Shown in pieces: positions 22,420 through 48,455 of a stretch of DNA of 64,000 nucleotides. Source of the DNA: Escherichia coli (GTDB taxonomy: Bacteria > Pseudomonadota > Gammaproteobacteria > Enterobacterales > Enterobacteriaceae); NCBI RefSeq assembly GCF_016026235.1, contig NZ_CP065613.1. One strand, written 5' to 3'. The notes under the pieces were generated by a model, which did no database searches, was not told the DNA's origin, and worked only from the letters and a program-made list of their open reading frames with translations. Positions within the stretch are counted from its first letter, which is position 1. The number at the start of each line of letters is the position of its first letter. A program made the position numbers and the translations under genes.

Positions 22420-25242
22420 TTACAGCATCGGCTTGAGGAAGCGTGCCGTATGCGAAGCTTCGCACTCCGCGACGGTTTCTGGCGTACCGGAGACGAGGAT
22501 TTCGCCGCCGCCACTGCCGCCTTCTGGTCCCAGGTCGACAATCCAGTCAGCGGTTTTGATCACGTCGAGATTGTGCTCAATCACCACAATGGTATTGCCC
22601 TGATCGCGCAGTTTATGCAGCACGTCGAGGAGTTGCTGAATATCGGCGAAGTGCAGACCGGTGGTCGGCTCGTCGAGAATATACAGCGTCTGCCCGGTGC
22701 CGCGTTTTGACAGCTCACGCGCCAGCTTCACGCGCTGGGCTTCACCACCAGAAAGTGTGGTTGCGGACTGCCCCAGGCGAATGTACGTCAGACCAACGTC
22801 CATCAACGTTTGCAGCTTACGCGCCAGAGCTGGCACCGCATCAAAGAACTCACGCGCCTCTTCGATGGTCATATCCAGCACTTCGTGGATGGTTTTGCCT
22901 TTGTACTTAATTTCCAGCGTTTCACGGTTATAGCGTTTACCTTTGCACTGATCGCACGGCACGTAGATATCCGGCAGGAAGTGCATCTCCACTTTGATCA
23001 CACCGTCGCCCTGACAGGCTTCGCAGCGCCCGCCACGGACGTTAAAGCTGAAACGTCCTGGCGTATAACCACGCGCACGGGATTCCGGTACGCCCGCAAA
23101 CAGTTCGCGCACAGGTGTAAACACGCCGGTATAGGTCGCCGGGTTAGAACGTGGAGTACGACCAATTGGGCTTTGGTCGATATCGATCACTTTATCGAAA
23201 TGCTCCAGCCCCTGAATATCGCGATACGGTGCCGGTTCGGCGATGGTCGCACCATTCAACTGGCGTTGGGCAATCGGGAACAGTGTGTCGTTAATCAGCG
23301 TCGATTTACCGGAACCTGAAACCCCTGTGATGCAGGTAAACAGACCGACTGGCAGCGTGAGCGTCACGTCCTTCAGGTTGTTGCCGCGTGCGCCTGTCAG
23401 CTTCAGCACTTTTTCCGGATTTGCCGGAACGCGTTTCTTCGGCACTTCAATCTTGCGTTTACCGCTCATGTACTGTCCGGTTAACGACTCCGGCACCGCC
23501 ATAATCGCTTCCAGTGGACCTTCCGCGACCACTTCACCGCCGTGAACACCCGCACCAGGACCGATATCGATCACATGGTCAGCCGCGCGAATCGCGTCTT
23601 CGTCGTGCTCCACCACAATCACGGTATTACCGAGATCGCGCAGATGGATAAGCGTACCCAACAGGCGCTCGTTATCGCGCTGGTGCAGGCCGATAGACGG
23701 CTCGTCCAGCACGTACATAACGCCAACCAGGCCCGCACCAATCTGGCTCGCCAGACGAATACGCTGGGCTTCACCGCCGGAAAGTGTCTCTGCCGAGCGG
23801 GAAAGTGTCAGGTAATTCAGACCGACGTTAACGAGGAATTTCAGGCGATCGCCGATCTCTTTAAGGATTTTTTCCGCAATCTTCGCCCGTTGACCAGCGA
23901 GTTTGAGATTGTTGAAGAATTCCATCGCATGACCGATGCTCATGTCGGAGATAGCAGGCAGCGGCGTATTCTCGACATAAACGTGGCGCGCTTCCCGACG
24001 CAGACGGGTTCCTTCGCAGCTGGCGCACGGACGATTACTGATAAACTTGGCTAATTCTTCACGTACCGCACTGGATTCCGTCTCTTTATAACGGCGCTCC
24101 ATATTGTGCAGCACGCCTTCGAACGGATGACGACGAATGGAGGTATCGCCACGATCGTTCATGTATTTGAATTCAATGTTTTCTTTGCCAGAACCGTACA
24201 ACACCACTTTATGCACGTTCGCGCTCAGGCTGCCCCACGGCGCTTCGACGTCGAACTTATAGTGATCTGCCAGCGATTTCAGCATCTGGAAATAATAGAA
24301 GTTGCGGCGATCCCAGCCACGGATCGCACCGCCAGCCAGCGATAGCTCGGGGTTTTGGATCACGCGGTCAGGATCGAAATATTGCTGTACGCCAAGGCCG
24401 TCACAGGTCGGGCAGGCACCTGCCGGGTTGTTAAACGAAAACAGTCGCGGCTCCAGTTCACGCATACTGTAGCCGCAAATTGGGCAGGCGAAGTTGGCGG
24501 AGAACAGCAGCTCTTCCGCTTTCGGGTCGTCCATATCCGCCACTACCGCGGTACCACCGGAAAGCTCCAGCGCGGTTTCAAACGACTCGGCAAGACGTTG
24601 GGTAAGATCGTCACGCACCTTGAAGCGATCAACCACCACTTCAATAGTGTGTTTCTTTTGCAGTTCCAGTTTCGGCGGATCGGAAAGATCGCAGACTTCG
24701 CCATCAATACGAGCACGGATGTAGCCCTGGCTTGCCAGGTTCTCCAGTGTTTTGGTGTGTTCGCCTTTGCGCTCTTTAATGATTGGCGCGAGCAGCATCA
24801 GACGCTTGCCTTCCGGCTGCGACAGCACGTTATCCACCATCTGGCTGACGGTTTGCGCCGCCAGCGGGACGTCGTGGTCCGGACAGCGCGGTTCGCCAAC
24901 GCGGGCGAACAACAAACGTAAATAGTCGTGGATTTCGGTGATTGTCCCCACCGTAGAACGCGGGTTATGAGACGTCGATTTCTGCTCAATTGAGATGGCA
25001 GGAGAAAGCCCCTCAATATGATCGACGTCCGGCTTTTCCATCAGTGACAGAAACTGCCGCGCGTAGGCGGAAAGGGATTCAACGTAACGGCGCTGCCCTT
25101 CGGCATATAAGGTGTCGAAAGCGAGCGAGGATTTGCCAGAACCCGAAAGCCCGGTCACGACAATGAGCTTGTCGCGGGGGATAACGAGGTTGATGTTTTT
25201 GAGATTATGGGTGCGGGCGCCCCGAACTTCGATCTTATCCAT
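22420..25242 (-). CDS. uvrA: Excinuclease ABC subunit A (940 aa)
   Basis: Protein [53 protein letters not shown]... with two ABC ATPase modules and zinc fingers. Confidence 0.98.
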
Positions 25243-25324
25243 TCACCTTTCCCGGATTAAACGCTTTTTTGCCCGGTGGCATGGTGCTACCGGCGATCAC
25301 AAACGGTTAATTATGACACAAATT

Positions 25325-25346
25325 GACCTGAATGAATATACAGTAT
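25325..25346. promoter_or_regulatory. LexA box shared by the divergent uvrA and ssb promoters
   Basis: Plus strand tgacctgaatgaatatacagta is the reverse complement of the uvrA SOS box TACTGTATATTCATTCAGGTCA (CTG-N10-CAG). Confidence 0.9.
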
Positions 25347-25495
25347 TGGAATGCAATACCCGGAGTGTTGTGTAACAATGTCTGGCCAGGTTTGTTTCCC
25401 GGAACCGAGGTCACTACATAGTAAAAGCGCTATTGGTAATGGTACAATCGCGCGTTTACACTTATTCAGAACGATTTTTTTCAGGAGACACGAAC

Positions 25496-26032
25496 ATGGC
25501 CAGCAGAGGCGTAAACAAGGTTATTCTCGTTGGTAATCTGGGTCAGGACCCGGAAGTACGCTACATGCCAAATGGTGGCGCAGTTGCCAACATTACGCTG
25601 GCTACTTCCGAATCCTGGCGTGATAAAGCGACCGGCGAGATGAAAGAGCAGACTGAATGGCACCGCGTTGTGCTGTTCGGCAAACTGGCAGAAGTGGCCA
25701 GCGAATATCTGCGTAAAGGTTCTCAGGTTTATATCGAAGGTCAGCTGCGTACCCGTAAATGGACCGATCAATCTGGTCAGGATCGCTACACCACAGAAGT
25801 TGTGGTGAACGTTGGCGGCACTATGCAGATGCTGGGTGGTCGTCAGGGTGGTGGCGCTCCGGCAGGTGGCAATATCGGTGGTGGTCAGCCGCAGGGCGGT
25901 TGGGGTCAGCCTCAGCAGCCGCAGGGTGGCAATCAGTTCAGCGGCGGCGCGCAGTCTCGCCCGCAGCAGTCCGCTCCGGCAGCGCCGTCTAACGAGCCGC
26001 CGATGGACTTTGATGATGACATTCCGTTCTGA
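25496..26032 (+). CDS. ssb: Single-stranded DNA-binding protein (178 aa)
   Basis: Protein [44 protein letters not shown]... with Gly/Gln-rich linker and C-terminal DFDDDIPF. Confidence 0.98.
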
Positions 26033-48380: not shown

Positions 48381-48429
48381 TTTGATAATACGATTGGGTA
48401 GGGAGTAACCAGTATAAAGAGTTCGAATG

Positions 48430-48455
48430 GATAAAAAAACAGCCTCCGAAAGGAG
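48430..48455. terminator. Stem-loop terminator between yjcO and fdhF
   Basis: Hairpin acagcctcc-gaaa-ggaggctgt preceded by a run of A. Confidence 0.7.

Follow-up and report, generated by a model that had tools for sequence, protein, structure and literature searches.

How can a single repressor site serve two genes that are transcribed away from one another, and does it serve both of them alike? This question is raised by the gap between uvrA and ssb in a stretch of 64,000 nucleotides from Escherichia coli (contig NZ_CP065613.1 of assembly GCF_016026235.1), the whole of which is hereafter called the window. A prior sequence-only reading of the window had placed one canonical uvrA SOS operator between the divergent genes and held that the transcription of both could be SOS-modulated from it. 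The arrangement is a familiar one, as uvrA and ssb form a divergent pair with one common LexA site in E. coli and other Gammaproteobacteria (Sanchez-Alberola et al., 2012; PMC3323433). Here, we examine the operator, the promoters predicted around it, and the extent to which each of the two genes may be said to depend on it. We hold with high confidence that 25326-25345 is the single LexA operator common to the divergent E. coli uvrA and ssb promoters.

The genes on either side of the site, and the gap between them, are as follows (coding coordinates include the stop codon; identities from NCBIfam and RefSeq):

22420-25242, minus strand: uvrA coding sequence, 940 aa, with its ATG at 25242
25496-26032, plus strand: ssb coding sequence, 178 aa, with its ATG at 25496
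25243-25495: the uvrA-ssb intergenic region, 253 bp

The first of these open reading frames matches the NCBIfam UvrA equivalog NF001503 at 1628.6 bits and the second matches the NCBIfam SSB model NF006533 at 360.1 bits. As the two lie on opposite strands, and as the RefSeq annotation of an identical region likewise has uvrA on one side and ssb (ssb1/ssb) on the other, the divergent pair named by the sequence-only reading is confirmed. An Rfam search of the intergenic region, ssb leader included, found no RNA family.

The operator in this gap was recognized by its weight-matrix score and its conservation:

25326-25345, minus strand: LexA operator (SOS box), 20-mer TACTGTATATTCATTCAGGT

Its CTG-N10-CAG core occupies 25328-25343 (CTG at 25328-25330, CAG at 25341-25343) around a spacer that is A or T at nine of ten bases, and the whole forms an imperfect 20-bp palindrome in which 15 of 20 positions fit the consensus TACTGTATATATATACAGTA. 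Such a core within a 20-bp imperfect palindrome is the form expected of a gammaproteobacterial LexA operator. A search for the perfect 20-bp consensus palindrome with at most three mismatches gave no match, because the box carries five. The interval originally proposed, 25325-25346 (plus strand, GACCTGAATGAATATACAGTAT), is this same 20-mer with one extra base on each side. Since the 20-mer is the same as the published E. coli uvrA/ssb SOS box and sits in the uvrA-ssb gap, the canonical uvrA operator does lie where it had been placed. Sancar and colleagues are said to have published this box in 1982 together with a LexA footprint, and a 2005 LexA ChIP-chip study by Wade reportedly included binding at the site. 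The uvrA ATG lies 83 nt beyond the box, and 150 nt separate the box from the ssb ATG, or 170 nt when counted from its far edge (25496 minus 25326). A single SOS box at the ssb promoters, in the uvrA-ssb gap, has been described with a heterology index of 6.98 and a 170-nt separation from the ssb coding sequence (Feliciello et al., 2022; PMC9505508), a distance that the window fits exactly. As cited in that work, the sources for the E. coli box are Brandsma et al. (1983, 1985) and Fernandez de Henestrosa et al. (2000).

The position of the box relative to the promoters of the two genes was approached by prediction. The strict built-in scan for sigma-70 promoters and terminators returned no match in 25150-25600; the candidates below derive from a relaxed scan for sigma-70 elements that allows an extended -10, combined with conservation:

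25310-25338, minus strand: predicted uvrA promoter, with -35 TATTCA (25338-25333), a 17-nt spacer and the predicted extended -10 TGtCATAAT (TG at 25318-25317, CATAAT at 25315-25310)
25323-25352, plus strand: predicted distal ssb promoter (P1 candidate), with -35 TTGACC (25323-25328), an 18-nt spacer and -10 TGGAAT (25347-25352)
25351-25379, plus strand: second ssb promoter candidate, with -35 ATGCAA (25351-25356), a 17-nt spacer and extended -10 TGtAACAAT (hexamer 25374-25379)
25419-25448, plus strand: proximal ssb promoter candidate, with -35 TAGTAA (25419-25424), an 18-nt spacer and extended -10 TGgTACAAT (hexamer 25443-25448)

Transcription of uvrA would begin near 25303, in which case the box extends over about -42 to -23 of its promoter and contains the predicted -35 in its entirety, in agreement with the published overlap of the box with the uvrA -35 (PMC9505508). 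In the other direction, the box fills the spacer of the ssb P1 candidate and overlaps its -35 by 3 nt. This candidate, which would start transcription near 25359, has the third-best plus-strand score in the relaxed scan, and Citrobacter and Enterobacter retain most of both its hexamers; we infer that it corresponds to ssb P1. The box therefore overlaps predicted core elements of both promoters, the uvrA -35 and the ssb P1 spacer, and a position outside both promoter regions is indicated neither by the secondary literature nor by the predicted elements. The remaining ssb candidates would start near 25386 and near 25455, respectively, downstream of the box and presumably beyond its reach. The proximal one has the top plus-strand score of the relaxed scan, stands some 100 nt from the box, retains its -10 TACAAT in Citrobacter and Enterobacter, and is probably a constitutive promoter; the second candidate is probably one of the two LexA-independent promoters of the literature.

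It might be argued from this layout that the box is effectively an operator of uvrA only, with ssb run by its proximal promoters and the sharing merely geometric. The ssb ATG is, after all, 150 nt away, and downstream of the box there are two promoter candidates that score better. According to Brandsma (1985), as cited in PMC9505508, ssb has three promoters, of which LexA represses only the most distal. In undisturbed growth, wild-type and lexA3 cells have the same basal level of ssb mRNA (PMC9505508), and the share of Salmonella cells that express ssb under non-inducing conditions does not depend on LexA (PMC8072944). Moreover, as summarized in PMC9505508, older radioimmunoassays, a lambda-clone study and three microarray studies did not see ssb induction. 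Against these observations stands the finding by RT-qPCR that ssb is induced by UV and gamma rays in a way that depends on LexA, with induction lost in lexA3, and that it is overexpressed in an SOS-constitutive mutant (PMC9505508). Nalidixic acid induces Salmonella ssb 9.6-fold, close to the 11.2-fold induction of uvrA (PMC8072944), and in some Vibrionaceae in which a phage insertion has split the pair, separate LexA sites are retained at each gene (PMC3323433). The TTGACC-18-TGGAAT candidate, furthermore, brackets the box in the ssb direction. On balance, we consider it very unlikely that the box serves uvrA only, and retain the reading of a shared operator. The claim that both genes can be SOS-modulated from one site consequently stands on the literature (PMC9505508; PMC3323433; PMC8072944) and on the predicted geometry, but with the qualification that basal ssb expression is LexA-independent. 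The evidence supports a partial SOS control of ssb and an asymmetry between the two genes, uvrA itself being described as moderately SOS-dependent (PMC9505508).

The Salmonella enterica box is likewise single and common to the same divergent genes, with a heterology index of 6.99; its annotated start codons are at 80 and 24 bp, unlike the E. coli distances (PMC8072944). A second comparison is available within the window, which also contains the lexA-dinF operon (lexA open reading frame 8458-9066, dinF open reading frame 9085-10464). Scores were obtained with a symmetric 20-bp LexA matrix derived from a set of 22 SOS boxes of E. coli, from which the uvrA box and both lexA boxes were omitted to avoid circularity. 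Besides the uvrA/ssb box, the following sites are pertinent:

8411-8430: lexA box 1, TGCTGTATATACTCACAGCA, 18.5 bits
8432-8451: lexA box 2, AACTGTATATACACCCAGGG, 18.1 bits
759-778: next best in the window (rank 4), 11.4 bits
25339-25358: next best wholly within the intergenic region 25243-25495, 4.8 bits

The two autoregulatory boxes directly upstream of lexA are the top two matches of the window and serve as internal positive controls. The uvrA/ssb box follows at 17.6 bits, third in 64 kb and 6 bits clear of the next site, so the motif scan bears out the operator, and as its runner-up inside the gap reaches only 4.8 bits, it also bears out that the box is single. Its score falls within the 13.5-28.3 bits spanned by the training sites and above background, where 200 first-order Markov shuffles yielded 0.03 sites per 64 kb at 17.6 bits or more. 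The lexA operators resemble the uvrA/ssb box in their CTG-N10-CAG cores and similar scores; they differ in being two adjacent boxes near their own ATG that serve one direction of transcription, whereas the uvrA/ssb site is one box for two divergent promoters. A third, weak CTG-N10-CAG (8.3 bits) is found at 8372-8387, 40 nt upstream of the lexA boxes. LexA-like 20-mers at 759-778, 39068-39087 and 48425-48444 score 10.9-11.4 bits and are probably due to chance, because the mean maximum of the shuffled sequences is 11.8 bits.

The bare CTG-N10-CAG pattern is a poor guide by comparison. It occurs 24 times in the window against 13.1 expected, a count reached by none of 100 shuffles, but it does not discriminate because most of its copies have GC-rich spacers, and their LexA-matrix scores are low. 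The excess may plausibly stem from a frequent use of CTG and CAG as codons and not from LexA sites.

Within E. coli, the box is nearly invariant. The 451-bp region 25150-25600 is 100% identical to that of E. coli FDAARGOS_943; of 5426 complete E. coli genomes, 5425 contain this region, and the 32-nt segment centered on the box has the same sequence in 5390 of the 5426 records. In the most divergent E. coli record, the 20-mer differs only at its two outermost bases and retains an intact core. Strain 14EC007, with an intergenic region that is 91.7% identical, has no changes at the 20 positions of the box vs. 26 at the 233 positions outside it. E. coli K-12 has the same 20-mer, flanking genes, orientation and distances (83 and 170 nt), and the intergenic region of MG1655 differs from that of the window at two of 253 positions, both outside the box (25356, A in the window and T in K-12; 25415, T in the window and A in K-12) and of no functional consequence.

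Several strain-level features were observed alongside. The A at 25356 completes a perfect 6-bp inverted repeat (GTATTG / CAATAC, 5-nt gap, 25343-25359) that adjoins the box at its right edge, with some overlap, and also overlaps the predicted ssb P1 -10. K-12 and O157 are among the strains with T at this position, which read CATTAC instead, and the repeat may represent a neutral polymorphism. Of the 5426 matches to the uvrA-ssb region, four are on records labeled as plasmids; in O157:H7 strain Rafaela_II, the annotation of uvrA is that of a frameshifted pseudogene. FDAARGOS_943 carries IS1, IS5 and IS110 insertions near the uvrA-ssb region and is apparently non-collinear with the window from lexA to uvrA, since its lexA lies about 1.7 kb from the position predicted by simple coordinate mapping.

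Beyond the species, one genome per species was scanned with the first 100 residues of UvrA, by which loci with a divergent ssb were recovered from Citrobacter, Enterobacter and Photorhabdus. The box is conserved at the orthologous position in these relatives: it is identical or nearly so in Citrobacter and Enterobacter and recognizable in Photorhabdus, and in all three it stands at an unvarying 149-150 nt from the ssb ATG. In an alignment of eight sequences from E. coli to Photorhabdus, 15 of the 20 columns of the box are invariant, as are 11 of 13 columns across the Enterobacterales in the adjoining block 25308-25320, which is the predicted uvrA extended -10; only 25% of intergenic columns are invariant outside the island 25308-25347, and comparison of the box with all 233 other intergenic columns gives a Fisher p of 6e-5. 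Upstream of uvrA, strong LexA boxes were likewise found in Haemophilus, Vibrio and two Oxalobacteraceae, and weaker ones in Pseudomonas and Alcanivorax, while most other lineages among the 80 gamma- and betaproteobacterial uvrA loci sampled had no box of the CTG-N10-CAG type within 400 nt upstream of uvrA. The combination of a divergent ssb neighbor and an upstream LexA box is patchy among these 80 loci. In Haemophilus, the uvrA ATG is 60-63 nt and the ssb ATG 66-73 nt from the box, and in an Oxalobacteraceae metagenome-assembled genome (L048) the box that lies between divergent uvrA and ssb, TACTGGTATTATATACAGTA, is close to consensus.

That the site is a chance CTG-N10-CAG in an AT-rich intergenic region, with no regulatory role, might be supposed from the frequency of the bare pattern (24 in the window) and from the five mismatches to a perfect palindrome. 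The supposition has a vanishingly small probability, and we reject it as refuted by the matrix statistics and the conservation: at its score, shuffled sequence yields 0.03 sites per window and the only real equals are the two lexA boxes, the box stands out as conserved within a diverging gap and hardly varies across 5426 E. coli records, and LexA control of uvrA and ssb is published.

Scarcely any probability attaches, too, to the notion that the conserved block is mainly the operator of another regulator such as ArcA, its likeness to a LexA site being secondary; although ArcA binding at uvrA/ssb and repression of uvrA have been reported (Ogasawara, 2005, as cited in PMC3798270; PMC9505508, Figure 1) and the sequence flanking the box is conserved on either side (25308-25320 and 25346-25358), we reject an ArcA-only operator in that the uvrA/ssb region was not recovered in genome-wide ArcA ChIP (PMC3798270), the flanking blocks are accounted for by the predicted uvrA extended -10 and ssb P1 -10, and the roles are not exclusive, such that an ArcA site would add to LexA function and not replace it. 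As a separate observation, the segment 25305-25320 of the window, GTTAATTATGACACA, looks by eye like an ArcA direct-repeat box, and it overlaps the predicted uvrA -10.

Taking the site as a shared LexA operator, a mechanism may be proposed for its action. In undamaged cells, a LexA dimer would occupy the imperfect palindrome 25326-25345, covering the uvrA -35 region (about -42 to -23) and lying within the spacer of ssb P1, so that RNA polymerase would be excluded from both promoters. Upon DNA damage, RecA filaments on single-stranded DNA provoke the self-cleavage of LexA, whereupon the site would be emptied and both promoters would fire. Given five mismatches to the 20-position consensus and a heterology index of 6.98, repression would be expected to be leaky, with an appreciable basal level of uvrA and a few-fold induction. 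Similarly, because the two downstream ssb promoters would lie outside the reach of LexA, basal ssb expression would be SOS-independent and the SOS increment modest. The LexA dependence and the number of ssb promoters invoked here are drawn from the literature, and the transcription starts are predictions.

One further, decidedly improbable conjecture concerns the ssb leader. LexA occupancy might switch ssb between a P1 mRNA with a long leader of about 137 nt and proximal mRNAs with short leaders. Were the long leader to differ in translation or stability, SSB output after damage would also be controlled post-transcriptionally, and such a switch, if true, could account for decades of disagreement between mRNA and protein measurements.

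The uvrA/ssb LexA box is already known and well described, and its confirmation here adds no new biology; it mainly validates the first-stage reading of the sequence and places the window as the E. coli chromosomal region from lexA to uvrA/ssb. The site is a standard example of one repressor site governing two divergent promoters, and through it nucleotide excision repair (UvrA) and the protection of single-stranded DNA (SSB) are both tied to the SOS response.
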